DNA of 64,000 nt from Candidatus Sungiibacteriota bacterium (GCA_016201505.1 JACQCQ010000009.1:65991-129990); one strand, 5' to 3'. Numbered from the stretch's first letter, positions 8,831 through 57,081 are shown. The notes: generated by a model not told the origin, from the letters alone. A program made the numbers and translations.

Positions 8831-8934
8831 ATCCCGTTAGAGAATTCATAAGAGGCTCTAAGCAAAAATGAGTTACCTAATACATGGCGATATCAGAATT
8901 TATATGAGGTCAATAGTTAATTTTCTAACGGGAT
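8831..8934. repeat. MITE-like element with ATCCCGTTAGAGAATT / AATTTTCTAACGGGAT terminal inverted repeats, inserted exactly between the pilM stop and pilN start
   Basis: 16-bp TIRs with 1 mismatch. The pilN ATG lies inside the right TIR (ctaacgggATGaaa). Same family as 34644-34746, 52434-52538 and the tRNA-Ser flanks. Confidence 0.6.
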
Positions 8935-9475
8935 GAAAACCTTTCTGCCAAATTTGCTCCCGCCGTCCGTCAAAGATGAAACTCGATTCGTCATTGTTCG
9001 CCATTTGGCAGTCCGGCTTTCGATTGTCGCCGCCTGCGGCATCATCATGTATTCGGTTTTTTTGATACCCTCCTTTTTTCTGCTCAAATTCCAGTTGGAT
9101 GAGATCCAGCGTCAAGTCGCGCTCGTCGACGCCGACCCCAAAATGAACGAAGTCTCAGCCATTAATGGGGGACTCGTATCCGCCAATGCCAGCGTTTCGG
9201 CCCTGAAGAGAGCGCTGGCCACCAGCACTTCGGTCTATACCGCCATGGGAGCGGTCGCTTCGCAGGCAACCCCAGGTATTCATGTGCAGTTTATTTCCTA
9301 TGACCGGCCGACGAGAACCATGTCGCTTGCCGCAAACGCGGCCGTCCGCCAGGACTTGCTCGCTTTTCAGTCTCGTCTCGCGGCCCTCCCCGTTGTTTTG
9401 AAAATTGATTCGCCGATTACGAACTTAGTGAAAGAGAGTAACGTCGATTTTCAGCTAAAAATTAGTTTCAAATAG
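8933..9475 (+). CDS. pilN: PilN-like bitopic pilus assembly protein
   Basis: Short cytoplasmic N-terminus, one TM, periplasmic coiled-coil. Position after pilM. Confidence 0.6.
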   Translation: MKTFLPNLLPPSVKDETRFVIVRHLAVRLSIVAACGIIMYSVFLIPSFFLLKFQLDEIQRQVALVDADPKMNEVSAINGGLVSANASVSALKRALATSTSVYTAMGAVASQATPGIHVQFISYDRPTRTMSLAANAAVRQDLLAFQSRLAALPVVLKIDSPITNLVKESNVDFQLKISFK

Positions 9476-9476
9476 C

Positions 9477-10043
9477 ATGCGCGGTTTAAAAGGCGCCATT
9501 ATTCAAATCATCTTGCTCATCGGAGGACTCGCCCTCTTTTGGTTTTTTGCGCCGTTTCAGATTATGAAAAACATTCACGGCTACGCCGCTGGCATTACTG
9601 CAGGACGGACTCATTTGGCTGTCGCCGGAGAAACGAGGCGCGATGCGTATATGAATAAGCAAAAATTAGACGCGCGATCAGATGATGTCAGCCGTGTTTC
9701 GGGAACCTTCTTCAGCCCGGCCTCGCCGCTTGATTTTATTGAGACATTAGAAAAGCTTGGGACTGCCACGCGGGCTAAGGTGACGATTGATCCGGTACAA
9801 GTTATTGCGCGTCCGCTTCCCGATATCCGCGTGACCATCCTTGGTGATATTCGCCAGGCTCTTGATTTTTTGCGTCTTGTTGAAAATGCTTCGAAGTTGA
9901 TGGAAATCGAGTCGCTGAACCTAAACACCTCCTCGGGTCCTTTGCTTGATTCCGGCTCCGGTGTGCTGGGCGCAAAAATTCCCGCTCGCACGAATCAAGC
10001 CGTAAACTTGATCGTCGTCGTTCGCGCCATAACAAAAAATTAA
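9477..10043 (+). CDS. pilO: PilO-like pilus assembly protein
   Basis: N-terminal TM plus a periplasmic domain. Synteny pilM-N-O. Confidence 0.55.
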   Translation: MRGLKGAIIQIILLIGGLALFWFFAPFQIMKNIHGYAAGITAGRTHLAVAGETRRDAYMNKQKLDARSDDVSRVSGTFFSPASPLDFIETLEKLGTATRAKVTIDPVQVIARPLPDIRVTILGDIRQALDFLRLVENASKLMEIESLNLNTSSGPLLDSGSGVLGAKIPARTNQAVNLIVVVRAITKN

Positions 10044-10044
10044 C

Positions 10045-10332
10045 ATGAAGTTCTTGCCCCATTTTTCTAAGAAAAAGTTTTCCCCGCCGCTGATTGATGT
10101 CGTGAGTTGCATACTGGTTTTGTTTCTCGCTCTCCTGATTTTCGGTTTGGGCTATGCCGCCAAACTTTATTTTTATGATTCGCGCACGGCTGCCGATATC
10201 ACCGAAACGGCCTATGCGCCCAAGATGCTCCAAGAAGCCGATCTAGATTCAGTAATTAAAGTACTTGATGCGCGCGCCGATGAGTTTGACGCCGGCATCA
10301 TAAATCCGGTTCTCGTCAACGTCTTCCGTTGA
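10045..10332 (+). CDS. Small membrane-anchored protein (PilP-like position)
   Basis: 95 aa with one TM, translationally coupled to pilO. Confidence 0.4.
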   Translation: MKFLPHFSKKKFSPPLIDVVSCILVLFLALLIFGLGYAAKLYFYDSRTAADITETAYAPKMLQEADLDSVIKVLDARADEFDAGIINPVLVNVFR

Positions 10333-10387
10333 TTTTTCCGAGAAAATCAGTAGAATTTGGATGATTGATTGGCTGATTATATTGATC

Positions 10388-10459
10388 CCCCTCGTAGTTC
10401 AATGGACAGAACGGGAGACTTCTAAGCTCTTGACCGAGGTTCGATTCCTCGCGAGGGGA
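10388..10459 (+). tRNA. tRNA-Arg (anticodon TCT)
   Basis: Acceptor CCCCTCG/CGAGGGG. D arm GTTC-AATGGACA-GAAC. Anticodon loop CTTCTAA. T arm CGAGG-TTCGATT-CCTCG. Discriminator A. There is one A31:G39 mismatch in the anticodon stem and a 4-nt variable loop. Confidence 0.6.
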
Positions 10460-10718
10460 CACTTTAGAAAAAGGCAAGCCAGAGGAAGCCGCCTCTCCGC
10501 CAACTGGTGGATCGGCGGCCAATTCGTATTGAATTTTGGGGGCAAAAACGAGTTGGCGGTTTCATTTGGGGGACGGAAAAATTTTTAATCATTTGAATTT
10601 TTGAAAAGAAGCTCATAAAGTTTCTTTTTTGTTTTTAGTATGGTATTGATTTTTGTAGCCGTCTTTGCTAGTTTATTTGTGGAACCCTAACAACCAAACA
10701 CAGAAAGGAGAGCTTTTT

Positions 10719-11354
10719 ATGACACAAGAAGCATTGACGACAGAGCTGCTTTCCATGCGAAAGCGAGCGGAACGAACGGCGCAGGGCATCGACCAGATCT
10801 CCCACAACCTTTCTGCCGAGCGGCAATCGCTCCGGCAGGTGGTCAAGGAGTACGGCACGAAGCGAGTCGAACTTCTGAAGCAGACGCTTCAAGCGCGCGG
10901 GATGACCTGGTGCACCTACTGCTCCAAAGCAGTTCCCGTGAACGAAGTCGAACTTCTGCTCGTCGAAGGAGTGGAGGAACGCTCTGGCGGCTACGAGAAC
11001 TCCTGCTGGGGCTGTGAACAGTTCTCTAAGTTGCACCGAGCGTGCCCTTATTGCCGCGAGCGAGCACAGGATCGACATGGGACCCAAGGCCGCTACGACA
11101 GCTTCAACAAGCTTCAGGCGTGCTTCTATGCTTTCCATGTGGAGAAGCGTGAGGACGGCCACTACGCTCGCAAGTTCGGCAACTGGGTCAAGCTCGACGA
11201 CGAGAACTGCAACCTCAATGAGCCGTCGAGTCAGCTGATCGAGAAACTTGCGGAAGAATGGAATCTTCCGCCACGAATCGAAGTCGAGTCGAAGTGGCCG
11301 AGTTCGGAAGAGAAACTCATCGTTCACGAGCGGGCACTGGCCGAAGCGAGTTGA
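10719..11354 (+). CDS. Hypothetical Cys-rich protein (CxxC pairs) in a GC-rich segment directly 3' of tRNA-Arg
   Basis: aaaggagag RBS 8 nt upstream of the ATG. Codon composition is visibly more GC-rich than flanking DNA. A terminator follows. Confidence 0.6.
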   Translation: MTQEALTTELLSMRKRAERTAQGIDQISHNLSAERQSLRQVVKEYGTKRVELLKQTLQARGMTWCTYCSKAVPVNEVELLLVEGVEERSGGYENSCWGCEQFSKLHRACPYCRERAQDRHGTQGRYDSFNKLQACFYAFHVEKREDGHYARKFGNWVKLDDENCNLNEPSSQLIEKLAEEWNLPPRIEVESKWPSSEEKLIVHERALAEAS

Positions 11355-11372
11355 CCATGTGTCCGCAATCGA

Positions 11373-11414
11373 GAGGGTGTCCTGCCAAATGCCGGGCACC
11401 CTCATTTCTTTTTT
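11373..11414 (+). terminator. Rho-independent terminator after the GC-rich gene
   Basis: gagggtg...caccctc stem followed by atttcttttttg. Confidence 0.6.
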
Positions 11415-11696
11415 GATTTTTAATCGAATTAAATTCATAATTAAATTGCCGCCAAAGAAAAACTTGAAATTGTCATCGGTGCGGCTCACTTCGACTTCGC
11501 TCAGTACGAGCCGCCGCCTTTCCGTCCGCCAGCTGGCGGATTCGCGGGGGGATTTCCTCGCCCCGCCGTGGCGGGGCGAAAACGGTTCGCACTATTTCAA
11601 GAATACTGGACTGTATCAACACCCAATGGAGTGAGGGGGGGCGGTGCTCTGGCGAAGCTGCTACGAATAAGAGGCTCTTTTTGGCATAATAGAAAT

Positions 11697-13511: not shown

Positions 13512-13512
13512 C

Positions 13513-14139
13513 ATGAGAGCGTCTGCGAAAAAAACTGATGCAGCACTGCGCGGCGGGTATACGCTGGTTGAGTTTCTCGTTGCCATTGGGCTTTTGGTGC
13601 TCATCGGCATGATTGTCTATCAGTTTACCTACAGTGTCATCACCTACAGCCGAATCTTAACTTCCCAGTTAATCGCCCAGAATGAAGTGCGCAAGACGGT
13701 AGACGTGATGGTTGAAGAATTGCGCACCATGGCGACATCCGATTCGGGCGCCTACCCCATTGAGGCGGCGGCGACCAGTTCGCTTACCTTTTACTCCAGC
13801 ATTGATAATACTCCGTCAAAAGAGCGTGTCCGGTATTTCTTGCAAGGCTCGACCTTGGAAAAAGGCGTGATCCAGGCGACCGGAACTCCGCCGACGTACC
13901 CGGCGGCCAGTGAAGTCGTAACGCCGCTCGTCAATTTGATTGTGAACGGCACGACTTCGATTTTTTCATACTACGATGGGAGTTATGGCGGGACCTCCTC
14001 GCCGCTTACACTGCCTGTCATCATCTCGAGTGTCCGTTATATCAAGCTTTCTGTTATTGTGGATGATAACAATCGCTCGCCAAATCCCATTATGGTGACC
14101 TCATCCGTGACCCTGCGTAATCTAAAGGATAATTTTTAA
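13513..14139 (+). CDS. Type IV pilin / pseudopilin
   Basis: MRASAKKTDAALRGG/YTLVEFLVAIGLLVL prepilin motif with Glu5. Starts 2 nt after the previous stop. Confidence 0.75.
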   Translation: MRASAKKTDAALRGGYTLVEFLVAIGLLVLIGMIVYQFTYSVITYSRILTSQLIAQNEVRKTVDVMVEELRTMATSDSGAYPIEAAATSSLTFYSSIDNTPSKERVRYFLQGSTLEKGVIQATGTPPTYPAASEVVTPLVNLIVNGTTSIFSYYDGSYGGTSSPLTLPVIISSVRYIKLSVIVDDNNRSPNPIMVTSSVTLRNLKDNF

Positions 14140-14141
14140 CT

Positions 14142-16138: not shown

Positions 16139-16192
16139 AAACCCATTTACTATTACTTTACACGATCGTGTAAAGTAATAGTAAATGGGTTT
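16139..16192. promoter_or_regulatory. 54-bp perfect palindrome centred on CGATCG, overlapping the start codon of the PaaX-like gene
   Basis: aaacccatttactattactttacacgat|cgtgtaaagtaatagtaaatgggttt has 27-bp arms with no mismatch. Confidence 0.55.
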
Positions 16193-16748
16193 GCGGGCGA
16201 AAAGGGGAGAAATTGTGCGAGGAGTACTGGCGGTACTTGCCGTATCTGCGGTGGTTCTTGCGGCTGCGACGTTTCCCGGTGCAGCGATTGCCCTGCGGCC
16301 CTTTTTTAAACGAAAATCTAATAAGATGAAACAGCGATCAGTCGAAGCCGCAGTGAAGCGCTTGAAAGAAAGGCGGCTGGTTGAAATTGTAATGAAAAAT
16401 GGAACGGAAACGCTCTCGATTACCGAACGGGGGAGAGGCTATTTAAAGCGTCTGGACTTTGATTTGCGTCGACTTCCTGTTCCAAAACATTGGGATGGAC
16501 ACTGGACTGTGATATTGTTTGATATTCCCGAAACTGAGCGCAAAGGACGTGATGCCTTGCGAATAAAATTAAAACAGCTGGGGTGCTTTAAATTCCATAA
16601 AAGCGTATTTGTGCATCCCGCTGATTGTGAAGATGAGATAGATTTTGTTACTGAAATTTTTGGTATACGACGCTATGTCACGGTATTTCGCACGAAGCAA
16701 TTAGGTCACCAAGAATATAGGGCAGTACGGTACTTCGAACTTTCTTGA
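16185..16748 (+). CDS. PaaX-family-like regulator (winged helix plus Cas2-like/PaaX C-terminal domain) with a hydrophobic N-terminus
   Basis: WDGHWTVILFDIPETERKGRDALRIKLKQLGCFKFHKSVFVHP matches the PaaX W-G-W-Y-PE...SVW pattern. Upstream is the wHTH-like stretch VKRLKERRLVEIVMKNG. Confidence 0.55.
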   Translation: MGLRAKRGEIVRGVLAVLAVSAVVLAAATFPGAAIALRPFFKRKSNKMKQRSVEAAVKRLKERRLVEIVMKNGTETLSITERGRGYLKRLDFDLRRLPVPKHWDGHWTVILFDIPETERKGRDALRIKLKQLGCFKFHKSVFVHPADCEDEIDFVTEIFGIRRYVTVFRTKQLGHQEYRAVRYFELS

Positions 16749-16845: not shown

Positions 16846-16883
16846 CCGCTATTACTTTACACGATCGTGTAAAGTAATAGCGG
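16846..16883. promoter_or_regulatory. 38-bp perfect palindrome, second copy of the core ctattactttacacgatcgtgtaaagtaatag
   Basis: 19-bp arms. It shares a 32-bp identical core with 16139-16192 and lies 98 bp after the PaaX-like stop. Confidence 0.55.
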
Positions 16884-20163: not shown

Positions 20164-20199
20164 AAAAGTAATAACCCTTCGCGAAGGGTTATTACTTTT
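20164..20199. terminator. 36-bp perfect palindrome; likely bidirectional terminator
   Basis: aaaagtaataacccttcg|cgaagggttattactttt, T-rich on both sides. Confidence 0.5.
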
Positions 20200-32394: not shown

Positions 32395-33177
32395 TCACCT
32401 GAATGCTTCACTCCTCCGCAAATTTTCTTTGATAGCCGCTTTAAATTGATCGAGCCCCTGGGCCGCATCATCTTTTTGATTCCCCGGGTAGGCTTTATAC
32501 CAATCTTGGAGCGAAAGGTGATGGGCTAAATTCAGTGCTGATTCAAATGAATTTTGGGCGTCTTTTTCGCCTAAGTTTAACTCTGCCACCCCGAGCGCGT
32601 TCCAAAGCCAGGGATTGGTATCGGCGTTTGGAATCTTTCGCATCGCGAGCCGTATGGTTTCTTTGGCTTCTTTAAACTTCCCGTCTTTGGAATAGACCCA
32701 GGCCAAATCATTGTATCCCGCCCATTCAGACGGTGCCCACTCAGTAAATCTTCTAAAATTGTCTTCAGCTTTCACTAAGTCGCCCTGTGTCCCGTAAATT
32801 AATCCCCGCACGTAGAGTGTGCGTAAATTTCCGGGATTGGCTCCGAGCTCTTTCGCAGTTTCACTAATCGCCTGATCGAATTTTCCCTCAATAAAATAAA
32901 TCCGCGCCAATTGATAGTGCCCCCAAAAAATACGGGGATCAATTGTCACTGCTTTCCGGTAGGCTTTCTCGGCAATGTCTAAGTTGTATGCACCGCCGTT
33001 GAAATAATACGCCCCAATGCCCGAGGCCAACTTCGCGTCCGTTTGGTCGAGTGTAACGGCAACCTCTCCCCAGCGATGTCCCCACAGAACCCGCGCCAGA
33101 GCCGTAGCTTGCCAATATAAAATCAGCGCACTAAAAAATAAAAAAGCAATGATGTATTGCCCTGTGTTTCTATACAT
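32395..33177 (-). CDS. Membrane-anchored TPR-repeat protein
   Basis: N-terminal TM then TPR motifs (AEKAYRKAVTIDPRIFWGHYQLARIYFIEGKFDQA...). Confidence 0.8.
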   Translation of the reverse strand: MYRNTGQYIIAFLFFSALILYWQATALARVLWGHRWGEVAVTLDQTDAKLASGIGAYYFNGGAYNLDIAEKAYRKAVTIDPRIFWGHYQLARIYFIEGKFDQAISETAKELGANPGNLRTLYVRGLIYGTQGDLVKAEDNFRRFTEWAPSEWAGYNDLAWVYSKDGKFKEAKETIRLAMRKIPNADTNPWLWNALGVAELNLGEKDAQNSFESALNLAHHLSLQDWYKAYPGNQKDDAAQGLDQFKAAIKENLRRSEAFR

Positions 33178-33213
33178 AAGTATCTTTGCGTTGAAGAACA
33201 CAGTAATAGGGGA

Positions 33214-33555
33214 TTACAGTCTGTCTCTCAACATCATAGGAAAACAGTAGCGCTGAATAATCAGCGAACAGTAGCAAAAATTAAGACCCCCATAACATTT
33301 CGGACACTCCCAATGTTCGGCGTACGCATAGGGTTTCGGGTCCTTTTTCAGAACATCAACAACCATATCGCCTATGTGACATTTTACAACACCGGTTCGA
33401 TGGGCAATGTCCAGTTCCTTCTTTCGGAAAAGCGGAATTTTGCCGAAATAGTGGCCCCCTCGATATCTGCCGCCCTTATACTGTGTGAGCCAGATATCCC
33501 TCGTACATATTGAGCATTTCTTTATAGATCGTTTCTTGATTTCTTTATATGCCAT
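33214..33555 (-). CDS. Hypothetical Cys-rich protein (zinc-ribbon-like)
   Basis: CSICTRD...CPKCYGG. Its fragment is duplicated at 34838-35035. Confidence 0.45.
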   Translation of the reverse strand: MAYKEIKKRSIKKCSICTRDIWLTQYKGGRYRGGHYFGKIPLFRKKELDIAHRTGVVKCHIGDMVVDVLKKDPKPYAYAEHWECPKCYGGLNFCYCSLIIQRYCFPMMLRDRL

Positions 33556-33634
33556 AAATTAAGATAACGCGTTGCAATTTCGACTAGAGCGTGCCACTTT
33601 AATCTGGGTGCTTCCAAAACGAAGAATGTTAAAT

Positions 33635-33862
33635 TCACAAATAATTCGAAAACTGTTCGGGAGTAAACTCTATTTCGCGTAAAATCTGACGCAATAATCC
33701 GCGGCCTATGTCCTCGCCTCCGTGTTTCGGCACAAGCGTCGTTCTCCCGTCCGGATGCTGAAAGAAAATGTGTGAACCGCTCTGACGCACTTTCGTAAAG
33801 CCGATGGAATATAAAACGCGCATGAGATCGCGCGCCTTCAGCATCCGCACCTTTTTGCTCAT
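33635..33862 (-). CDS. hicA: HicA mRNA-interferase toxin
   Basis: LMRVLYSIGFTKVRQSGSHIFFQHPDGRTTLVPKHGGEDIGRGLLRQIL. Confidence 0.85.
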   Translation of the reverse strand: MSKKVRMLKARDLMRVLYSIGFTKVRQSGSHIFFQHPDGRTTLVPKHGGEDIGRGLLRQILREIEFTPEQFSNYL

Positions 33863-33869
33863 GATCTAT

Positions 33870-34124
33870 CTATATGGTAACCACCTCCATTCCCACGAAC
33901 GCCGGTTCATACGCGAACCATTTAATTCTCTTCCGGTACAACGGATTTATTCTTGTGACCTCGAGTGAGAGACGAATCGCGTCGCGGACTCGTTCTCGGA
34001 GCTCATTCATTGTTTTTGCCTGGGTTGAACATCCCGGCAATGCAGGAACCGACGCAACAAAATAGCCGTCTTCGTCGTGCTCGACTACAACTTTAAATTG
34101 ATTTTGCGAGAATCTCTTATTCAT
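33870..34124 (-). CDS. hicB: HicB antitoxin
   Basis: VVVEHDEDGYFVASVPALPGCSTQAKTMNELRERVRDAI. Confidence 0.85.
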   Translation of the reverse strand: MNKRFSQNQFKVVVEHDEDGYFVASVPALPGCSTQAKTMNELRERVRDAIRLSLEVTRINPLYRKRIKWFAYEPAFVGMEVVTI

Positions 34125-34231
34125 AAAACCCGAAGATAGATATTATACAATCTACCGTATTAATGGTCAGAAATCAATCATCCGGCATCATCCAATATCA
34201 ATACTCTAATCTTTCTATAAAGTCTTTTACC

Positions 34232-34330
34232 CCTCACGCCAGAAAGCTCCGTTTGTAAAGACGGAGACGAATAGCTAAAAAACGCGAAGTAGAGGCCAGA
34301 AAGCCATGAGTGTACACCCGTAGTGTGGGA
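34232..34330. repeat. Second copy of the approximately 95-bp repeat
   Basis: See 20228-20325. Confidence 0.5.
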
Positions 34331-34357
34331 GTTTACGAGAATTTGCGCCCCAGCATT

Positions 34358-34645
34358 TCAACCCAAATAAATCCGTGCCAGCTGATAATGCCCCCACAAA
34401 ATCTTCGGATCAATCGCCACCGCTTTTTTGTAGCCTTTTTCTGCGAGATTTAAATCATACGCCCCGCCGTTGAAGTAATAGCCGCCAATTTGAGAGGCAA
34501 GTTTAGCGTCTTTTCTATCAAGCATTATGGCAATTTGTCCCCACCGATGATGCTCCCAGGCTATTTCAGCGAGTGTAGTGCCTACAGAATACAAAATCAA
34601 CGCACAAAAAAACAAAACAGCAACAATAGCGTGCCAAGATTTCAT
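34358..34645 (-). pseudogene. Truncated paralogue (N-terminal 95 aa) of the TPR gene 32395-33177
   Basis: MKSWHAIVAVLFFCALILYSVGTTLAEIAWEHHRWGQIAIMLDRKDAKLASQIGGYYFNGGAYDLNLAEKGYKKAV aligns residue by residue. Confidence 0.5.
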
Positions 34646-34746
34646 CCCGTTAGAGAATTAACGAGTAACTTTATGGCAAGTTTAATGTCTCTATGTGTCG
34701 TGAGCCTCATTTTGAAATACAGCCCCGATTAATTCTCTAACGGGAT
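34644..34746. repeat. MITE-like element with ATCCCGTTAGAGAATTA TIRs (perfect 17-bp)
   Basis: atcccgttagagaatta ... taattctctaacgggat. The start codon of the truncated TPR paralogue lies in the TIR. Confidence 0.6.
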
Positions 34747-34837
34747 TCATCCATTCACGATCGCGTCTGCCTGCTCGCCTCGCTGGAGCTTTGGCGAAGC
34801 GGGCTGGCAGAGCTTCTAATTGGTATTCATAAAAAAA

Positions 34838-35134: not shown

Positions 35135-35395
35135 TCAAGAATACAAGTTACTATGCTTATCGATAATGGTAAACTCAACAGTAGTCTCATCGAGAGTTTT
35201 ATAGAAAGCACGGAAATCGCCAGTGACATTGATACTGCGGAAATCCCGCCACTCACCATGGAGAGCATGATTGTTGAGTGTCGGGTTAAAGGGATCAGCC
35301 ATAAATAGCCGAAGCCTTTTCTTGAATTTGTTTCTTACCGATACCGGAAGTTTTTGATAGTTTTTATCAAAATTCTTATGAAAGAGAACTTTCAT
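35135..35395 (-). CDS. RelE/YafQ-type toxin
   Basis: FDKNYQKLPVSVRNKFKKRLRLFMADPFNP...GDFRAFYK. Confidence 0.8.
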   Translation of the reverse strand: MKVLFHKNFDKNYQKLPVSVRNKFKKRLRLFMADPFNPTLNNHALHGEWRDFRSINVTGDFRAFYKTLDETTVEFTIIDKHSNLYS

Positions 35396-35667
35396 AGTCG
35401 ATCAAGGTACTGAAGTGCTTCTTTATGGGTGAACGGCCCACGAGCATTCTTCCTGCCCCTGATGTCTTTTATAATTTGCATAAGCAGTTTCTGGGTGCGT
35501 CTGTTCGGTACCGGAGGCGCTGAAAAAATAACCCGCTTTTCCCGTATGAATTCCTTAAGATAGGCGTTAATAATGGTTCCCAACGGAAGTCCAAGCTCCC
35601 GTGCCGCCAGCTGCGCTTCTTCCTTAAGCTTTTTGTCGGTTTTTATATTCAGCAGTATTTTTTCCAT
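35392..35667 (-). CDS. RelB/DinJ-type antitoxin
   Basis: LLNIKTDKKLKEEAQLAARELGLPLGTIINAYLKEFI. Overlaps the toxin by 4 nt. Confidence 0.8.
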   Translation of the reverse strand: MEKILLNIKTDKKLKEEAQLAARELGLPLGTIINAYLKEFIREKRVIFSAPPVPNRRTQKLLMQIIKDIRGRKNARGPFTHKEALQYLDRL

Positions 35668-38458: not shown

Positions 38459-39463
38459 CTAACTAAAGACAGTGTACATTTTTAATATGCCCGCACCTAC
38501 TCTCATTAAGAGAGAGTCGGGAACGAGATGGAGCGTATTCTCTACGTCATTTTTGGTTGATCGCGTTGGCTTAGCGACGAAATCGTGAATTCCGTTTGAA
38601 CAAAGTTTGAATGCCACGAGACAGCCGCCATGTATCCTGGTCGTTTTGTAGTAATAATCGGAGGGATTTAATATCTCGGCGAGTTTCGGGTCATACAGTA
38701 ACGCGCCCAAGCTGTAAAAAATTAATCCATCCCTATACCTTTCAATTAGCTGCATTCCGTGCGGCTGATGTCCGACGACAATATTCGCTCCATAATCAAT
38801 TGCTAGTCGGTAATACATTTTTTGATGTTCGTCAGGGAAGAAAGAAAATCCCGCATAAACGTTTCCGACTGTGTGCAGCGCGACAATGACAATGTCAGAC
38901 GATACTCTCGCTCGTTTTATCGCACCGGAGAGGTGCTCCTTTGTTAACGACGCTACGCCGCTTTTTCCTTGTGCTGGATGCATATTCTCGTCCAGCAGGT
39001 CGGTCTGTGCTAAAAAAGACACCCGAAGATTTTGAAGGTTAACTACCTTCGGCATGAAAGCCTCATAGTTATCTTCTCCTATTCAGATGAAGTCAATTTT
39101 TTCGGTTTTTAACAAATTAAGGCATTCCTCGAGTGCAGTTCTGCCATAGTCAAAACTATGGTTATTCGCAAAAGATAAAATATAACGGCGATCCCCCCTG
39201 AACAAACTAAAAATCGCTGGGTCAGATCGAAAAAGAAACTCCTGGTTCCCGTTTCTTCTTGGCTGGCCGCCACGGGAAATGACGCCCTCGTAATTAAGAA
39301 ATATTACGTCACTTTTTTCTATGGTGTCTCGAAACTTTCCCCATATAGAATTGTGATCAATCTTGGACACCCCCCTACTAGTTTCCGTATTAAAAATCAA
39401 ATCACCGCCGACTAGAACGGTTCCTTGATATTGACATGCCGTATGTTGAAATATCTGCATCAT
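38459..39463 (-). pseudogene. CapA/PGA_cap-family metallophosphatase homologue interrupted by one in-frame TGA
   Basis: LVGGDLIF...SFANNHSFDYG...KIDFI-TGA-IGEDNYEAFMPKV...VIVALHTVGNVY...IVVGHQPHGMQ. The two ORFs 39083-39463 and 38459-39055 are in the same frame. The stop is at 39083-39085. Confidence 0.6.
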
Positions 39464-41447: not shown

Positions 41448-43016
41448 CTATGGAAAAGGGTGCGGAAAAGTGTTGAATTTTCTCTTAATCTGATAGCCCA
41501 GTTTTGGCAGGACTGTTCTAAGTCTCGAGGCTCCCAAGGGTGCAAAAGTTTCGTTAAGGTATAATGGGACTAATTCAGGCACCACAACCTGAGTTACATT
41601 ATAACCCAATTCATGGTTTAAGAAATAATCGCGAACCTCAAATCCGTAAACTTCGTAGCCTATTCCCAACGACTCGACCCTTTTGACCAAGAAGTTTAAT
41701 TCATCACGAGTTGTCGCAAAGCTTCTTGGAAAATCAAAGCGGACTTTTTGAATATCCTGGGCATGTCCTTCAAGGAAAAAAGCAATGTGTTCGCGCATCT
41801 TTGGGTTAGCCCAAAGATGCAAACGTTCTTCTTGACCTAATGAAGGGTCACCAAACGGCCTATAATTATCAGCTAACTCATATACGGGATGACTGTCTTT
41901 CTTAGATCGGAGACTATAATAAACTCCCCAAGCTTCTTCATATGCCTTTGTCGCCGCGATTTCTGGATTTGCGTGACAGCCACCCCCCATTGATAAGTAG
42001 GGCCCCACCCAGGATTCATCTAGAATGATCGCAACAAAACTGGGCGGGCCTATGTCGAGTGTTGTGTTTAATATGTGACACTTGAATCTGCATCTTTGCA
42101 CTTGGAGTATTGAACTCCTCAAATCTTTGTTGAGAGACGAAATATCAATTTGTGGCGGAGAGATTCTATTAAGCCAGAAAATGAGAAAGGCATCTCTTTC
42201 AATAAGTTCATATAAACCCGCCAGCATTGCCCCCTCTCGATTAAACATCCCCCCGCTACCATTTGTATTTGGCTCTCTAAGAAATACTTCTGGTATGTCC
42301 CCGCTGATGTAGTTCCAAAAGATTAGCTGTGCGGGCAGCATGGTTTTTTGTCCTGTAGACACTCGAACACCTTGAACCCAGTGAAGTCTATGCTCTGGGG
42401 TCCAAGCAAAACGATTTGATTGATTTTGCTGTTCCTCCGAGAAACTCACCAACTTCTTAGGATCTAAAGCCCGGGCTCTTCTGTTCAAATCTACATAAGA
42501 ATTCGTCACAAAATTTTTTCTACTGTACTTAGTCAAATAATATCGCTCCAAAAATTCCCCGATACTTTTACTAACCATACTAATTAAGTCTTGACCGGAG
42601 CTATGTCCGAATGTACGAACAATTTTTCTCCCATCAGTATTATATGTATCATCAATGGATGGAGTTATATCAATCCGACTGAATGCTGGAGAGTCGTTAA
42701 AACGGCGGTGGTCTATGAATACGTCTTTGACAAGTCCACGCTCCTTTAATTTTCTAATAATTTTTATAAACGGACGTAGGGATTCCTCATATTTATTGAG
42801 GATTGCATAGGAAGTCCTTTCAGAAATTTTATCAAGGTCTTTATACAACCTTGATAATATCCTCTTCTCGAAAGAATTGCTCTCCAGATCGTAGAAACTT
42901 GCTGTCAAAGAATTCTGTCCCGGCCCCCCTGCATCGAAATATTCGGACATTAATACAAGCCCATCATAATCAAGCGGCTGGTAGAGACTGAAGTCTTGTT
43001 CTTTTGGTGTGCTCAC
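41448..43016 (-). CDS. YcaO-domain protein (ATP-dependent cyclodehydratase/amide-activating family)
   Basis: TNGSGGMFNREGAMLAGLYELIERDAFLIFWLNRISPPQID is the signature YcaO ATP-binding region. 522 aa with an approximately 170-aa N-terminal extension. Confidence 0.85.
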   Translation of the reverse strand: MSTPKEQDFSLYQPLDYDGLVLMSEYFDAGGPGQNSLTASFYDLESNSFEKRILSRLYKDLDKISERTSYAILNKYEESLRPFIKIIRKLKERGLVKDVFIDHRRFNDSPAFSRIDITPSIDDTYNTDGRKIVRTFGHSSGQDLISMVSKSIGEFLERYYLTKYSRKNFVTNSYVDLNRRARALDPKKLVSFSEEQQNQSNRFAWTPEHRLHWVQGVRVSTGQKTMLPAQLIFWNYISGDIPEVFLREPNTNGSGGMFNREGAMLAGLYELIERDAFLIFWLNRISPPQIDISSLNKDLRSSILQVQRCRFKCHILNTTLDIGPPSFVAIILDESWVGPYLSMGGGCHANPEIAATKAYEEAWGVYYSLRSKKDSHPVYELADNYRPFGDPSLGQEERLHLWANPKMREHIAFFLEGHAQDIQKVRFDFPRSFATTRDELNFLVKRVESLGIGYEVYGFEVRDYFLNHELGYNVTQVVVPELVPLYLNETFAPLGASRLRTVLPKLGYQIKRKFNTFPHPFP

Positions 43017-43838: not shown

Positions 43839-43870
43839 TTATTCTCATATTCTTGAGAATATGAGAATAA
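43839..43870. repeat. AT-rich perfect palindrome P (variant) at a cassette boundary
   Basis: ttattctcatattct-tg-agaatatgagaataa. Related to 45304-45339 and 45969-45998. Confidence 0.6.
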
Positions 43871-45303: not shown

Positions 45304-45339
45304 GTTTATTCTCAAGTTCTTAAGAACTTGAGAATAAAC
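45304..45339. repeat. 36-bp perfect palindrome P
   Basis: gtttattctcaagttctt|aagaacttgagaataaac. Confidence 0.6.
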
Positions 45340-45910: not shown

Positions 45911-45968
45911 AAGATGTGTAATACTTTATTTTACAAGACTATCTTCTTTGATTTCTCCATCAATAACT

Positions 45969-45998
45969 TATTCTCAAGTTCTTAAGAACTTGAGAATA
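45969..45998. repeat. 30-bp perfect palindrome P
   Basis: tattctcaagttctt|aagaacttgagaata. Confidence 0.6.
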
Positions 45999-46023
45999 GG
46001 CTCTTTGGCTGAACCCTACGAGA

Positions 46024-48943: not shown

Positions 48944-48986
48944 CCAGGCGCCCTTTCACAATCAAATACCGAAAAGGAGAAAAACG

Positions 48987-50045: not shown

Positions 50046-50048
50046 CCT

Positions 50049-51575: not shown

Positions 51576-51579
51576 CGTT

Positions 51580-51700: not shown

Positions 51701-52417
51701 GTGATTTCCGTAAAAAATCTGGCAAAAGAATATCTCGTCGATGAAACAGCGACCAAAGCGCTTCGCGGTATCTCATTTGATATCGATGAAGGCGAGTTTG
51801 TGGCCGTCATGGGGCCATCAGGTTCGGGGAAATCGACTCTACTCCATATTTTGAGTTTTTTGGATCGTCCCACGGTAGGTTCGTATACATTCTTGGGAAA
51901 AAGTATTCAGGATTTAAGCGATCAAGAATTGGCCCACATTCGAAATCAAGAAATGGGATTTATCTTTCAGGCTTTTAACTTGCTTTCGCGCTCGTCCGTC
52001 TATCAAAATGTCGAAATTCCCTTGCTCTATTCAGATCTGCCGGTACGAGAGCGGAGACCACGCATTTTGAGCGCTGTGGCGTCAGTCGGACTTTCCGAAA
52101 AGTTAGGGACTGAAGCCGGCAGACTTTCAGGCGGTCAAAAACAGCGGGTGGCCATTGCCCGGGCGCTGGTTAATGAACCGGCCATCGTGTTCGCCGATGA
52201 GCCGACGGGTAATCTCGATTCAGAATCGGGCGGCGAGGTCATGGAAATTTTTGAAAAGCTGCATAATCAAGGCCGCACGATTGTGCTGGTTACGCATGAG
52301 ACCTACACCTCCGAATTTGCGCGTCGACTCATTCGATTAAAAGACGGCTTGATTGAAGTTGACGAGCCGATTGTGAAGCGGCATCGGCACCTTAACGGCG
52401 AAAAACTATTTAAATAA
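51701..52417 (+). CDS. ABC transporter ATP-binding protein (MacB/LolD-like)
   Basis: GPSGSGKSTLLHIL, LSGGQKQRVAIARAL, IVFADEPTGNLD. Confidence 0.9.
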   Translation: MISVKNLAKEYLVDETATKALRGISFDIDEGEFVAVMGPSGSGKSTLLHILSFLDRPTVGSYTFLGKSIQDLSDQELAHIRNQEMGFIFQAFNLLSRSSVYQNVEIPLLYSDLPVRERRPRILSAVASVGLSEKLGTEAGRLSGGQKQRVAIARALVNEPAIVFADEPTGNLDSESGGEVMEIFEKLHNQGRTIVLVTHETYTSEFARRLIRLKDGLIEVDEPIVKRHRHLNGEKLFK

Positions 52418-52433
52418 ACTTCTGAAAAAATAC

Positions 52434-52538
52434 ATCCCGTTAGAAGCCGCGATCGCGAAAGACGGAATACATATGAAAATTATAATTAAAATGATTTTAC
52501 AGCAAACGCGTTTGATCGCGATCTGCTTCTAACGGGAT
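52434..52538. repeat. MITE-like element with ATCCCGTTAGAAGC / GCTTCTAACGGGAT TIRs between the ABC ATPase and permease genes
   Basis: Perfect 14-bp TIRs. The permease ATG lies in the right TIR (ctaacgggATGaaa). Confidence 0.6.
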
Positions 52539-53784: not shown

Positions 53785-54076
53785 CGGGCATTCGGCTTTT
53801 ATTTTTTGCAAACGGCGATTTTCCCACCGAGAAAATCACTTTCCCAATCTCCTCGCTCGTCCTGCCACGGCTTAGGACACCATGGTCGCTCGTCGATTGA
53901 GGATTTCAAAAAATAATAGTCTCATTTTTGTCTTTCTGAATGCAGGCCGTTGGCCTTTTTTAAATAAAGAACCCAGCCCTGTTCACTATGATCTTCCTCC
54001 TGCGTTGAAAACGCGTCTTTTTGCTGGTATTCTGTTAAGACGTTAAACGCGCAAAAATTTCAAGTCGAGTATTTCG

Positions 54077-54147
54077 GGGCCTATGGTATAGCGGCAACAC
54101 AACTCCATGGCATGGAGTAGTCCCGGGTCCGATTCCCGGTAGGTCCA
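54077..54147 (+). tRNA. tRNA-Ala (GGC)
   Basis: G3:U70 wobble in the acceptor. Anticodon stem ACTCC/GGAGT with loop ATGGCAT. T arm CCGGG...CCCGG. Discriminator A. D-arm pairing is imperfect, so it needs tRNAscan confirmation. Confidence 0.55.
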
Positions 54148-54354
54148 CTGCTTCGCCTTCGGGCTACGCAGTGCAAGCACTGTTAGCACAAGAAAGGCCT
54201 ATCAAAAGAGATGAGATCAAAATCAAGAAGCAGTGTCCTGCGTAGCTCGGAGAGCGAAGCAGGGCAAGCACTGTTAGCACAAGAAAGGCCTATCAAAAGA
54301 GATGAGATCAAAATCAAGAAGCAGTGTCCTGCGTAGCTCGGAGAGCGAAGCGGG
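54148..54354. repeat. 2 x 91-bp tandem direct repeat, each unit closed by an inverted-repeat arm, immediately 3' of tRNA-Ala
   Basis: The units 54173-54263 and 54264-54354 differ at 1 position. Arm ctgcttcgccttcgggctacgcag (54148-54171) is the complement of ctgcgtagctcggagagcgaagc at each unit end. Confidence 0.8.
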
Positions 54355-54362
54355 GCAACGAT

Positions 54363-54602
54363 ATGTATTTCACCTATATTCTTCGGAGTGATAAAGATGG
54401 AAGCTGTTATACTGGCATAACGGATAATTTGAAACGGCGTATAGCTGAGCACAATTCGGGCAATGTAACTTATACATCAAGTAAGAGCCCTTTTAGGCTT
54501 GTATGGTTTTGCGGATTCCCGACTAAGAAAAAAGCTTTAGAGTTTGAGCTATATCTGAAGTCGCATTCTGGGATTGCGTTTAGGAATAAGAGGTTGATTT
54601 AG
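54363..54602 (+). CDS. GIY-YIG nuclease-domain small protein
   Basis: MYFTYILRSDKDGSCYTGITDNLKRRIAEHNSG. Confidence 0.8.
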   Translation: MYFTYILRSDKDGSCYTGITDNLKRRIAEHNSGNVTYTSSKSPFRLVWFCGFPTKKKALEFELYLKSHSGIAFRNKRLI

Positions 54603-54778
54603 ATTGTAAAAAGTTTGATTCTCATCGGGATATAAAAAGAACTCCCTCGAACCTCCACCGGTGAAGATGGAGATCCGAGAGGTAACGCATGTTGCCTAAC
54701 GTCCAGATAAGGTCCACCAAATGAAAAAAGTTAACCGTGAGACAAAAAATTGAGGGCTCTTTTGCAAAAGAGCCCCGG

Positions 54779-55039
54779 TTAGGAGGAGGACGGTACTGCT
54801 CCCGGTCCTTTGAAGATGGCAATGGTTGAGCCGTCTGGCTCAATCCGGATATATCCGGCGGCCGCCATTTCATGGAGCACCTGACGGAAGGGCCGATCCG
54901 CAGAAAAAAAGAGATCGAGTCCGAGCCCACGCATTCTCGTCAAGGTATCGGCCAGAAGCTCGTTCGGACTCCGCTTCCGATCATCAGCCGCCACGACATC
55001 GAGCATGATGGAAACAACTCGATCCTCGGTTGTTATCAT
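54779..55039 (-). CDS. Hypothetical protein (GC-richer)
   Basis: 86 aa from the Met at 55039. No family recognised. Confidence 0.35.
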   Translation of the reverse strand: MITTEDRVVSIMLDVVAADDRKRSPNELLADTLTRMRGLGLDLFFSADRPFRQVLHEMAAAGYIRIEPDGSTIAIFKGPGAVPSSS

Positions 55040-55184
55040 GGCAACACCTCCTGTAACTCCAGTATAGTCGCATCGGCCCGATAAGTTTTCCACCCACCCT
55101 TTCTCGCGCGAAACCTTTGACGAATGGGCACAGTTATAGTAGACAAAGGGAGTCAGCCAATCCTTTAAATGGAACATTTCGCAC

Positions 55185-55808
55185 ATGTCTTTGGATCAAA
55201 ATGACTCTCAGCTTGGTTTCTACGACGAAGGACAAGATGGACTAAAAGACGAGGTTCTGCTCCACGCTTCCGCGGACGACCCTCGTCTTTTTGAGGTTAT
55301 CGTCCGCCGCTATCAGGAGCCGTTTTTACGAGCCGCGACCCGCATTGTGCGCCGGCGTGAAGATGCCGAAGACATCGTCCAGGAAGCCTTTTTAAAAATT
55401 TATAGAAATGCGGGAAAATTCGTAAAACAGGAAAATATCGAATTTAAAAGTTGGGCCTACAAGGTTGTGTTAAATACCGCCTTCACGCATTATCAACGGC
55501 TAAAAAAACGCGGGATTTCCGAAGAGTCAGACGAAGCACTGCTCACGGTTGGAAAAGATGAGCACATAGAGGACGCGCTTCATACCAAGATGTTGCTCGA
55601 GCGCGTTATGGCTGATCTCCCCGAAGATCTGGCCCACGTTTTGCGCCAACACTACATAGCCGATAAAGCCTATGAGACCATTGCGGGCGAAGAAAGAACG
55701 ACGATCGCCTCAATTAAAATGAGGCTCTATCGAGCGCGCAAGGCCTTTAAGAAACTTTCAGACGATAAGCCGAGTTCCATAGAAAAGAAGCCTAATCACA
55801 CTTATTGA
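55185..55808 (+). CDS. ECF-type RNA polymerase sigma factor
   Basis: Region 2 EDAEDIVQEAFLKIYRN and region 4 TIASIKMRLYRARKAFKK. Confidence 0.85.
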   Translation: MSLDQNDSQLGFYDEGQDGLKDEVLLHASADDPRLFEVIVRRYQEPFLRAATRIVRRREDAEDIVQEAFLKIYRNAGKFVKQENIEFKSWAYKVVLNTAFTHYQRLKKRGISEESDEALLTVGKDEHIEDALHTKMLLERVMADLPEDLAHVLRQHYIADKAYETIAGEERTTIASIKMRLYRARKAFKKLSDDKPSSIEKKPNHTY

Positions 55809-55809
55809 T

Positions 55810-56166
55810 ATGCAAATTAGCGTGCCACATGACCATTTAACCAAGCGGATCATGCGCCGGGTCTTTGCCACCTGGTTTATTCGGCGGATACTGCCGCCGC
55901 TCGTTTTAGAGTTTGGCGCCCTGGGGCTCGTGCTTGCCGGAATTCATGAATATATTTCCATTCGGTTTGTGATGCGGAACGCCGTTCACGCCATTCACGG
56001 CGTTCCGTCTCTAATTATGTTCTCCGAGAGCGCCCTGGCACACACGGCTTTTGTGCCGCGCCTGCTGATGGCGGCGTCAATTATGCTCGCCATACTTCTT
56101 ATTCGGGATCTGCGGCGCATTGTGTCGCGGCCCATGGCACGAGCTCGCGGCTTTGTATCGGTCTAA
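55810..56166 (+). CDS. Membrane protein, candidate anti-sigma factor
   Basis: Starts 2 nt after the sigma gene. Has 2-3 TMs. Confidence 0.45.
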   Translation: MQISVPHDHLTKRIMRRVFATWFIRRILPPLVLEFGALGLVLAGIHEYISIRFVMRNAVHAIHGVPSLIMFSESALAHTAFVPRLLMAASIMLAILLIRDLRRIVSRPMARARGFVSV

Positions 56167-56199
56167 TTTTTTTCAAAAGAAAAGTTCGACGACGAAAAA

Positions 56200-56228
56200 C
56201 GCCACTCAGCCTGAGTGGCGTTTTTTTC
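56200..56228 (+). terminator. Rho-independent terminator
   Basis: cgccactcag-cc-tgagtggcg followed by ttttttt. Confidence 0.8.
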
Positions 56229-56317
56229 TTCCGCCGCCGCCAGAGATTAAGTTTATAGGAATAAGTCATACCAGAAAGAGAATAACCGGGATGGGGTAGA
56301 AATTCGATGTGTGTGCT

Positions 56318-56405
56318 TTGGCGGATTCCGCAGTATCTTGCAAGAGTTCACCTTCGGTGAAATGCAAGATATTCACGGCCTCTGGCCATGAAGCTCCAAT
56401 TTCTG
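56318..56405 (+). ncRNA. Conserved two-hairpin RNA motif (copy B) in the 5' leader of the PPC/DUF296 gene
   Basis: TGGCGGATTCCGC, then ATCTTGCAAGAGTT-cacc-UUCG-ggtg-TGCAAGAT, then CACGGCC-TCTG-GCCATGA, then AGCTCCA. Base pairs are compensatory relative to copy A. Confidence 0.45.
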
Positions 56406-56425
56406 CTACGATAGTTACGATTTTT

Positions 56426-56854
56426 ATGAAGGTCATTCACGAAAGTGAAAATTCATACATTCTTGCCTGGTTTCGCGGCGAGGAGGTAATTTCGTCGCTC
56501 TCTGAATTTTTAGAGAGAGAAAATATCCGGGCCTCGCATTTTAGCGGGCTCGGCGCGGCCGAATCGCTTGAAATCGCATTTTACAATCTGGATGCCAAAG
56601 AATATGAGAAAAAATCGGCCAATTATGACGTTGAGATTCTCTCGCTGGTTGGAAACAGTGCCATGATGGACGGGCGCCCCATCGTGCATATGCACGGCGT
56701 ATTCGCCAAACGCGATTTTTCCGCCTTCGGCGGCCATGTATTTTCCATTCATGTCTCGGGGGCGTGTGAACTGCATGTAACGCGCATGTCCGGCATCATG
56801 AAGCGCGAGTACGATGAGGCCTCGGGGCTCAATCTCCTCTGTGAACTCGACTGA
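56426..56854 (+). CDS. PPC/DUF296-domain protein
   Basis: MKVIHESENSYILAWFRGEEVISSLSEFLERENIRASHFSGLGA...DGRPIVHMHGVF. Confidence 0.7.
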   Translation: MKVIHESENSYILAWFRGEEVISSLSEFLERENIRASHFSGLGAAESLEIAFYNLDAKEYEKKSANYDVEILSLVGNSAMMDGRPIVHMHGVFAKRDFSAFGGHVFSIHVSGACELHVTRMSGIMKREYDEASGLNLLCELD

Positions 56855-56968
56855 AAGCTTAGAGCGAACTCAACTAAACTATTTATTGAATTGAGCCTCA
56901 TTTCCTGCTAGATTGGCTTGGTATTTAGCCTTAGGGAAGCGTGGCAGAGTAATTGAATGGGGCGGCTC

Positions 56969-57081
56969 GTCCCGTTAGAAATGGCGGGGTGCCAGAGTGG
57001 GTGAATGGGGCGGTCCCGAAAACCGTTAAGGGAGAAATCCCTTCGTGAGTTCGAATCTCACCCCCGCCGTTTCTAACGGGA
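56969..57081. repeat. 19-bp inverted repeat flanking tRNA-Ser (extends the acceptor stem by 12 bp); same TIR family as the MITE-like elements
   Basis: cccgttagaaatggcgggg ... ccccgccgtttctaacggg with 1 mismatch. Upstream, at 56942-56975, is a degenerate copy of the tRNA 5' half. Confidence 0.6.
56983..57069 (+). tRNA. tRNA-Ser (CGA), class II with long variable arm
   Basis: Acceptor GGCGGGG/CCCCGCC. Anticodon arm GCGGT-CCCGAAA-ACCGT. Variable hairpin AGGGA-GAAA-TCCCT. T arm GTGAG-TTCGAAT-CTCAC. Discriminator G. Position 33 is C. Confidence 0.75.

Follow-up and report, generated by a model that had tools for sequence, protein, structure and literature searches.

Four hairpin copies in the window

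The stretch of 64,000 nucleotides analysed here (GCA_016201505.1 JACQCQ010000009.1:65991-129990, called the window below) belongs to a metagenome-assembled genome of Candidatus Sungbacteria, in the candidate phyla radiation (CPR, or Patescibacteria). It contains four copies of a short hairpin element with constant ends, located between pilM and pilN, between the genes of an ABC ATPase and a MacB/FtsX permease, at the start of a TPR-like fragment and around a tRNA-Ser gene. These neighbours are those named in the initial annotation, in which the four sites were taken as a family resembling miniature inverted-repeat transposable elements (MITEs), and the gene located 5' of Copy 1 is indeed assigned to the PilM family. 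The four pairs of arms are confirmed, together with their coordinates: the sequence ATCCCGTTAGA, with at most one mismatch, is matched 8 times in the window against 1.03 expected, and none of 100 shuffles reaches 8 matches. A relaxed search with the 9-nucleotide arm and one mismatch revealed nothing above chance across the window beyond the known arms, and the copy number in the window is therefore four. The copies are arranged as follows.

8828..8831, plus strand: left flanking repeat TGAA of Copy 1, including the pilM stop TGA (right repeat at 8934-8937)
8832..8933, plus strand: Copy 1, T-CCCGTTAGA (8833-8841) … TCTAACGGG (8924-8932)-A, between pilM and pilN
34645..34745, minus strand: Copy 3, arms at 34646-34654 and 34736-34744, in the same orientation as the minus-strand gene
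52435..52537, plus strand: Copy 2, between the ABC ATPase gene (stop 52415-52417) and the MacB/FtsX permease gene (ATG 52537)
56970..57081, plus strand: Copy 4 (cargo form), T-CCCGTTAGA (56971-56979), AAT, tRNA-Ser, GTT, TCTAACGGG (57072-57080)-A

Each copy is predicted to fold as one long hairpin, as anticipated, with a stem of 16-21 bp in the window and z scores of -4.2 to -9.0 relative to shuffled sequences. The calculated energies are -28.7 kcal/mol for Copy 1 (z -4.2), -48.6 kcal/mol for Copy 2 (z -9.0), -37.4 kcal/mol for Copy 3 (z -5.5) and -67.6 kcal/mol for Copy 4, whose stem is continuous with the acceptor stem of the tRNA. The interiors of the four copies are mutually unrelated. The terminal inverted repeats proposed initially have to be revised on two points: the arm pairs are real, with the reservation that the left arm of Copy 4 reads GTCCCG and departs from the proposed sequence by one mismatch, and the invariant core is limited to 9 bp (CCCGTTAGA) and a complementary Y/R pair, the remaining bases being flank or target sequence. 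The alternative of a ribosome-binding-site or terminator consensus common to all genes can be discarded, since the 64 kb contain only four sites, a Shine-Dalgarno sequence is missing from the arm and the matches are far more numerous than expected by chance.

The location of the element between stop and start codons is borne out, and so is the proposal that it supplies the start of the downstream gene. The start ATGs of pilN (8933) and of the permease gene (52537) are made of the last two bases of the right arm followed by a G, the A and T of the ATG being thus element bases in Copies 1 and 2; for pilN (open reading frame, ORF, 8933..9475), the A is A8933, the final base of Copy 1. Copy 3 supplies the ATG (34645-34643, minus strand) of a 95-aa TPR-like N-terminal fragment. 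The left-hand ATG is missing in Copies 1 and 2. Perfect TGAA repeats flank Copies 1 and 3 (for the latter TTCA, on the gene strand TGAA, at 34641-34644 and 34746-34749), and none is present at Copies 2 and 4, where the flanking 4-mers are respectively TACA and TGAA, and CTCG and TCGA. Once the element is subtracted, the Copy 1 site reads GTC-TGAA-AACC and pilN has no canonical in-frame start upstream; the pilM/pilN site would formerly have been an ATGA stop/start overlap, converted via a synonymous change from GTA to GTC. No close relative of the window genome suited to the search for an empty pilM-pilN site was found in the protein database.

The TPR gene that begins at Copy 3 (32395-34645, minus strand) appears to be broken into several ORFs, among them the 95-aa N-terminal piece (34358-34645) and a TPR-repeat ORF (32395-33201), in agreement with its earlier description as a pseudogene. 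Copy 3 is immediately preceded by a probable toxin-antitoxin pair, composed of a YafQ/ParE-type toxin gene (35135-35395, minus strand) and a small ORF located upstream of it (35392-35667).

Anatomy, flanking repeats and spread across phyla

The initial annotation implied a family local to one genome, a scale that turned out to be far too narrow. The exact pattern ATCCCGTTAGA-N70-100-TCTAACGGGAT was searched in one genome per species (596 Gb, 31 gap lengths) and gave at least 119 loci, designated L001-L119; the statistics on anatomy, flanks and start codons presented below describe the copies among the matches listed. At least 119 species genomes hold this 11+11 arm pattern, against ~1 expected by chance according to our own estimate. 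Among the matches listed, the majority belongs to Patescibacteria (Saccharibacteria, Paceibacteria, the Kaiser-, Nomura-, Levyi- and Campbellbacteria groups, and others), and the arms are also present in Omnitrophota, Sedimentisphaerales/Planctomycetota and WOR-3.

The ends are invariant over 10 bp, Y-CCCGTTAGA…TCTAACGGG-R, including one complementary Y/R pair, and the stem is usually perfect over 14 bp (exactly 14 bp in half of the copies). At stem positions 12-14, Watson-Crick pairs account for 92-94% of the cases, with 3-4 pair types at each position, against 42-47% when the right arms are re-paired randomly. Doubly compensated arm variants also exist (CACGTTAGA/TCTAACGTG, CCCGCTAGA/TCTAGCGGG, CCCGTTACA/TGTAACGGG and CCCTGTTAGA/TCTAACAGGG), which indicates that the pairing of the ends matters, beyond the sequence of the arms alone. 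The interior ranges from 3 to ~120 nt and is wholly different between copies, and lengths cluster at roughly 102-108 and 116-122 nt; related interiors are encountered only in a few pairs (L053, L092, L051), and near-identical copies are found at different genes of one genome in L053 and L092. A conserved asymmetry, …YC-T-RYY, precedes the right arm in about half of the copies. Many copies possess in addition a second stem, formed either by a local hairpin or by a long-range CGCGRTC/GAYCGCG pairing; the latter is the situation of Copy 2 in the window, whose additional inner stem (GATCGCGA/TCGCGATC) recurs in copies of other candidate phyla and whose ends are also found in L025, L093, L102 and L047. 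Minimal copies of 27-47 nt, reduced to the arms and a tiny loop, exist and have the flanking repeat. Tandem copies share one junction and are joined by exactly one spacer, TCTAACGGG-ATGAAT-CCCGTTAGA.

A degenerate second right arm (…CTAACGGGA…) is present a few bases past the left arm at L107:2054-2166 and in L002, L024, L044, L048 and L117; a possible alternative fold can thus be drawn, in which local pairing of the left arm releases the distal arm together with the ATG. At L172:3734-3829, a variant-arm mini-hairpin (CCCTGTTAGAGG…CCTCTAACAGGG) is nested in a standard copy located at a start codon. The IMG/VR contig 3300038429_000794 (L173, L179, L180), labelled viral, holds at least five copies, including minimal hairpins of 27-28 nt. 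More generally, the matches in viral contigs are sporadic, at or below the chance estimate with the exception of one multi-copy contig, and neither tRNA-type copies nor a solo joint were found in them; phages were rejected as the vector on these grounds.

The oriented consensus of most copies is ATG-R / AT-CCCG…CGGG-AT / G-R-A. Identical 4-mers are present outside Y…R in 104 of 148 copies, against 27 expected and a maximum of 41 when the flanks are re-paired. They are of the TNNA type, with TGAA (76) and TGGA (18) at the head, while TTTA, TAAA, TCAA, TTGA, TGCA, TGTA and TACA are found at sites other than start codons. The flanks can alternatively be parsed as a 2-bp repeat (mostly GA, or GG) beside 11-bp arms: the same dinucleotide, mostly GA, stands on both sides in 107 of 140 copies, with a target consensus AT-GR-A. 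Inverted repeats, short flanking direct repeats and multiple copies are all in line with the MITE-like insertion family first postulated, as are empty homologous sites. Indeed, in comparisons made between species with 47-83% protein identity, homologues both with and without the element were found for ClpP (occupied in L033 and L116, empty in L161 and L001), SSB (occupied in L073 and L111, empty in L074) and T2SSF (occupied in L015, L017 and L045, empty in the window, L041 and L132).

The ATG at the right end opens the long ORF of a real gene in 124 of 133 copies, a property shared by 30% of random ATGRA sites. On the basis of availability in the same loci (283 ATGRA gene starts and 693 intergenic ATGRA sites), ~29% would be expected, and a sequence preference combined with purging from coding regions is thus insufficient to explain the position fully. 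The downstream genes fall into 129 Pfam families of unrelated housekeeping functions, including pheT, clpP, ssb, frr, adk, gyrA and aminoacyl-tRNA synthetase genes, a diversity that rules out a gene-specific riboswitch or leader. Two Planctomycetota and two CPR genomes have the element at the start of pheT, and its interiors are unrelated there. In the listed host genomes, Shine-Dalgarno sequences are rare (44 of 615 control starts, 7%) and a -10-like TANNNT box has its peak at 6-7 nt from the ATG on the 5' side, a sign that leaderless mRNAs are widespread; the elements are modestly enriched at genes with such a box before the ATG (41% vs 27%). The right arm itself contains stop codons in two frames, the first being TAA and the second the TGA that forms part of ATGA.

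Complete tRNA genes nested in interrupted tRNA genes

Copy 4 represents a cargo form of the element. Metagenomes searched for a T-loop motif flanked by the arms yielded 50 loci, in 49 of which a complete tRNA is located exactly between the arms. The enclosed tRNAs are Thr-TGT/CGT, Pro-CGG/TGG, Val-CAC/TAC/GAC, Ala-CGC, Leu-CAG and Ser-CGA/GGA. The initial suggestion of a tRNA-derived element is not supported, since ARAGORN detected no tRNA in the interiors of the ~140 copies of the listed 119 genome loci and since the tRNA, where present, is an intact cargo.

The joined flanks are called as a tRNA in about half of the cargo loci and, in 37 of 40 unique cases, are most similar to the same isotype as the enclosed tRNA, in the same orientation. 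This host tRNA is mostly interrupted in the anticodon loop after ~nucleotide 35, with rarer interruptions of the D loop (L132, L133) and, in L148, of the T loop. An identical 90-nt Thr(CGT) cassette was found in three different host tRNAs (L129, L130, L138), which designates the cassette as the moving unit. Many hosts are truncated or have lost part of the anticodon stem (L130, L133, L140 and others), and the flanks often carry a foreign tail, TGAA, TAAA or CAAG. In the Pro hosts (L131, L136, L166, L171) and in the Thr host L141, a perfect loop of 7 nt with the correct anticodon is recovered once the element and its tail (4-5 nt) are taken out; the other hosts are 2-4 nt off a perfect loop after the same operation.

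The tRNA-Ser locus of the window is composed of the following parts.

56935..56969, plus strand: host tRNA-Ser 5' part, with the GGAAGCG acceptor strand, the D arm and the anticodon stem as far as ~nt 35 (…GGCGG CTCG)
56983..57069, plus strand: enclosed tRNA-Ser(CGA), Rfam RF00005 51.4 bits; ARAGORN 56982-57070
57086..57176, plus strand: host tRNA-Ser 3' part, GAAAACCGTT, variable-arm hairpin, ~40 surplus nt, degenerate T arm and acceptor strand CGCTTCC

The bracketing of a tRNA-Ser by the arms had been recognized, and a genuine tRNA with an extended acceptor stem does lie between them; the addition to be made is that arms and tRNA are together nested within the remnant of a second tRNA-Ser gene. 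The enclosed tRNA-Ser(CGA) is intact, of class II and without an encoded CCA, and it is located between a PCC-domain gene and the IF-2 gene. From end to end, the 5' part of the host aligns with the first half of the enclosed tRNA, and the intron mode of ARAGORN spans 56935-57176. The host has decayed, its two parts giving no callable tRNA when joined. From the alignment of the flanks, the matching acceptor strands and this decay, it follows that the tRNA-Ser(CGA) of the window is a cassette inside the wreck of an older tRNA-Ser.

The anticodon loop of the enclosed tRNA-Ser (57014-57020) reads CCCGAAA, with an unusual C33 in place of the near-universal U. Several interrupted host tRNAs elsewhere (L136, L141, L166) also have CC-NNN in this loop.

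Nature of the element and its surroundings

The hairpin is probably a non-autonomous mobile DNA element of the MITE-like type, which replaces what it disrupts. Insertion at the DNA level accounts best for the flanking repeats, the minimal, tandem and near-identical copies, the empty sites, the spread across phyla and the decay of the host tRNAs. According to this model, the sole constant part would be the terminal hairpin stem Y-CCCGTTAGA/TCTAACGGG-R, usually extended to 14 bp by covarying bases, and the content between the arms would be free, whether 3 nt, an AT-rich stretch of ~60-100 nt or an entire tRNA gene. Insertion would take place at TNNA, chiefly at the TGAA or TGGA of A/TGAA and A/TGGA, and would leave the 4-mer on both sides. 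Insertions at start codons would keep the frame and persist because this target is the commonest gene start (ATG followed by a Lys, Asn, Glu or Asp codon) and because the right junction re-creates …CGGG-ATG-. A ribosome starting from the duplicated upstream ATG would end beside the real ATG owing to the right-arm stops in the other two frames. In the cargo form, a complete tRNA would interrupt the resident gene for a tRNA of its own isotype, mostly past ~nt 35, in the anticodon loop, and the frequent decay of the interrupted host suggests that the enclosed tRNA has taken over its job. DNA-level transposition, the reason why start codons are favoured and the functional replacement of tRNAs are what we infer from these patterns. 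As to the mobilising enzyme, the junctions resemble, by analogy, those of IS30-type, large-serine-recombinase-type or 4-bp-duplicating DDE transposase systems.

Several observations weigh against this explanation. No autonomous partner was detected, neither a transposase nor a recombinase being located beside any copy in ~1.5 Mb of sequence, and no arm pairs more than 170 nt apart were found in the same ~1.5 Mb. Occupied and empty sites were compared between species only, with no strain-level pair. The interiors are unrelated even inside one genome, unlike those of ordinary MITE families, and ~70% of the non-ascertained secondary copies have perfect 9+9 arms, with few decayed copies, a dominance which suggests either selection on each copy or very fast turnover. 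The orientation relative to the gene is nearly fixed (61:3). The frame from the duplicated upstream ATG crosses the interior without a stop in 37 of 100 copies, whereas the corresponding numbers are 10±3 for shuffled sequences and 19 for the antisense strand. This frame stops at the right-arm TAA in 25 copies and at the TGA in 10, with in-frame fusion almost nil (2/24), a pattern in the sequences which suggests that the upstream ATG may be translated, with termination beside the real ATG tolerated or favoured. A conserved leader peptide was rejected, the predicted peptides sharing only their arm-encoded MNPVR start and end. The fixed orientation and the open upstream frame hint at constraints on the transcript. 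Concerning the tRNA-type copies, the flanks are not direct repeats (5/48), no single cut-and-paste rule fits all of their junctions, a few interrupted hosts are intact (L127, L136, L141, L163, L166, L171), and the hosts of L127 and L163 present compensatory differences between species, a situation that also fits the removal of the insert from RNA. Unmatched flanks, fixed orientation, open frame, perfect arms and unrelated interiors keep alive the RNA-processing and intron-like explanations discussed below, and both may be consequences of the same mobile DNA.

Conservative site-specific recombination is a variant of the mobile-element explanation that differs only in the enzyme, and it is considered unlikely. 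The abutted ends TCTAACGGGAT-GA-ATCCCGTTAGA would constitute a palindromic site, whose crossover region would measure 2 bp for a serine recombinase and 6 bp for a tyrosine recombinase. The enzyme would be provided in trans, on the model of Tn4451/Tn5397-type elements, of Xer-dependent modules or of the coupling sequences of the Tn916 type. The prevalence of GA as central dinucleotide, identical on both sides, is in its favor, as are the resemblance of the target AT-GA-A to the joint and the spacing of tandem copies by exactly one such spacer; the near-fixed orientation would follow from a non-palindromic crossover dinucleotide, and the unmatched foreign 4-5-nt tails (TGAA) of the tRNA-type copies look like carried-over coupling sequence. 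Tn4451 TnpX, Tn5397 TndX and IS30-type systems share with the hairpin the 2-bp GA repeat, the joint-like target, the head-to-tail copies with the same spacer and an orientation set by the dinucleotide. These elements are kilobases long and encode their own enzyme, whereas the element described here has no linked enzyme and its two ends pair into one hairpin. The window does encode a large serine recombinase, a point in favor of this mechanism, but the gene lies at an unrelated site, seems to belong to a separate element at tRNA-Val and has a homologue in only 1 of about 170 loci; a link with this gene is not supported. The absence of a solo joint in viral contigs and of arm-like sequence beyond 1-2 bases in the targets also argues against this mechanism.

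It is likewise doubtful that the hairpin is primarily a conserved RNA-processing module, in which the stem would be recognized by a double-strand-specific or sequence-specific ribonuclease (RNase III or Mini-III type) that cuts polycistronic mRNAs just before the ATG, producing short-leader or leaderless mRNAs and releasing tRNAs, with copies kept for their usefulness and mobility secondary or absent. Such a module is consistent with the long perfect stems contiguous with the tRNA acceptor stem, with the covariation at stem positions 12-14, with the fixed orientation and with the Shine-Dalgarno-poor hosts and their frequent -10 box 6-7 nt before the ATG. It is also consistent with arms that remain perfect where interiors have diverged even before the same gene (pheT in L052 and L064, ClpP in L033 and L116). 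It leaves unexplained, however, the direct repeats, the tandems with shared junctions, the 27-nt minimal copies and the empty homologous sites. Furthermore, just 3 of roughly 60 window genes carry the element, the interrupted host tRNAs decay, and G:U mismatches in the stem do not outnumber A:C ones (5 vs 6), with no RNA-strand signature seen. RNase III excises the intervening sequences of bacterial 23S/16S rRNA, which form hairpins; like the present copies, they are sporadic ~100-nt hairpins inserted in loops of structural RNAs, with a plausible RNase III stem and no re-ligation. They are not known to occur in tRNA loops or at start codons, to have a stem sequence fixed across phyla or to carry a tRNA, and RNase III is not known to require an 11-bp fixed sequence. 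Processing of the RNase III type, the other initial suggestion, would be plausible as an RNA-level consequence of the element, one which accounts for neither the direct repeats, the patchy occupancy nor the decayed host tRNAs.

Less probable still is a protein-dependent intron-like element, in which the hairpin would be excised from RNA and its flanks rejoined, as for the archaeal bulge-helix-bulge introns, the duplicated ATGR allowing a scarless removal. These archaeal introns, some of which are reported to transpose between tRNAs (Fujishima et al. 2010, cited in PMC10714607), form short inserts in anticodon, D and T loops, also in rRNA and in one mRNA, and are mobile among tRNA genes. The hairpin similarly interrupts these three loops and mRNAs; the 7-nt loop restored in the Pro hosts and in Thr L141 by removal of N-arm…arm-N' plus 4-5 nt, the intact hosts with between-species compensatory changes (L127, L163), and direct repeats that leave the excision point ambiguous and the product unique all go in the same direction. 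The likeness to the archaeal introns stops there, since the hosts are bacterial, many host tRNAs are dead, a replacement tRNA is carried and no bulge-helix-bulge motif, with its two 3-nt bulges on either side of a 4-bp helix, is found at the junctions (by inspection only), where a continuous stem stands instead. Half or more of the host tRNAs are truncated, short of the anticodon stem or deprived of one half (L130, L133, L140, the window), an indication that the insert is not rescued by splicing there, and an enclosed tRNA of the same isotype would be needless if the host were spliced. We know of no bacterial enzyme that removes introns of this kind. A known ribozyme is not supported either: none of the Rfam 15 families, including group I/II introns, hammerhead and twister, matches at the gathering threshold, and only generic long-hairpin models appear, far below it, at E up to 10.

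Two further candidates were rejected: a hammerhead or K-turn reading of AUGA[stem]GAA fails because the variable base is identical, not complementary, on both sides and because GG and GC variants exist, and the interior does not behave as a flank-matching guide of the bridge-RNA type (median z 0.2).

The hairpin element can finally be set against known families of mobile DNA. MITEs and other small non-autonomous elements (Correia/NEMIS, ERIC, RPE, MITEs derived from insertion sequences, IS) are similar in their size of ~100-120 bp, their perfect terminal inverted repeats and their short target repeats, and also in having no transposase, many copies, co-transcription with neighbours and patchy occupancy among relatives. 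They differ in that here only ~10-14-bp ends are conserved, across phyla, that the interiors are unrelated within a genome and can be reduced to 3 nt or consist of a tRNA gene, and that the copies stand precisely on start codons, which they rebuild. No parent IS of the hairpin is known to us. The IS1380/piggyBac systems also have ends starting with CC(C) and a 4-bp TNNA duplication (TTAA for piggyBac), but no such transposase was found near the copies. Integron attC sites are imperfect intergenic hairpins of 57-141 nt which share conserved ends and structure, a variable centre and asymmetric unpaired bases near the stem; they were rejected since the core order is reversed (GTTAGA…TCTAAC, not RYYYAAC…GTTRRRY) and the copies have housekeeping neighbours, with no integrase or array context. 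In the searchable literature, no description of such an element in CPR bacteria was found, nor of bacterial tRNAs nested in tRNAs, and papers containing both arm sequences use them solely as unrelated primers. The element is thus apparently undescribed so far. A more ambitious proposal, put forward tentatively, is that it represents an unrecognised class of bacterial mobile elements surviving in essential genes by means of spare parts, either a portable start codon or a replacement tRNA that overwrites resident genes and has spread between phyla of ultra-small bacteria, and/or that the hairpin is removed from transcripts by an undescribed sequence-specific RNA processing or splicing.

Other features of the window deserve mention. 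The 3' end of the ORF for the large serine recombinase (61106-62659, minus strand) runs into tRNA-Val(TAC) (61075-61149). A repeat similar to the 3' part of a tRNA, GGAGTGTCAGGTTCAATC, is present near 61243-61260, and a short ORF resembling a helix-turn-helix regulator at ~62699-62905; the region 61075-62905 looks like an element integrated at tRNA-Val. Perfect zero-spacer palindromes sharing TATTACTTTACACGA/TCGTGTAAAGTAATA (16139-16192 and 16846-16883) flank a PaaX-like gene (16185-16748), and a related palindrome, AAAAGTAATAACCCTTCG/CGAAGGGTTATTACTTTT, is located at 20164-20199; a role as operators or as terminators is possible for all three. Another family of palindromes, TTATTCTCAAGTTCTT/AAGAACTTGAGAATAA, is found at 45304-45339 and 45962-46005, with a variant at 43839-43870. 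A PGA_cap capsule-synthesis gene (38459-39463, minus strand) is split into two neighbouring ORFs, one corresponding to the N-terminal and the other to the C-terminal half of its family, and a YcaO cyclodehydratase gene (41448-43016, minus strand) stands amid small and unannotated ORFs, in what is possibly a cluster for ribosomally synthesized and post-translationally modified peptides.

The existence of the hairpin has practical implications for annotation, since gene callers and tRNA finders will be misled at such sites and report false ATGs upstream of the real ones, intron-containing tRNAs and tRNA genes in separate pieces. Its invariant 9-bp stem is a simple genomic marker, which could be used to find the enzyme and also to study the start of translation beside a very stable hairpin in organisms that are largely free of Shine-Dalgarno sequences. 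If the explanation retained here is true, a selfish element can occupy the most sensitive positions of a streamlined genome, namely start codons and tRNA anticodon loops, without killing its host, and would offer a route for the replacement and exchange of tRNA genes among Patescibacteria, Omnitrophota and Planctomycetota.

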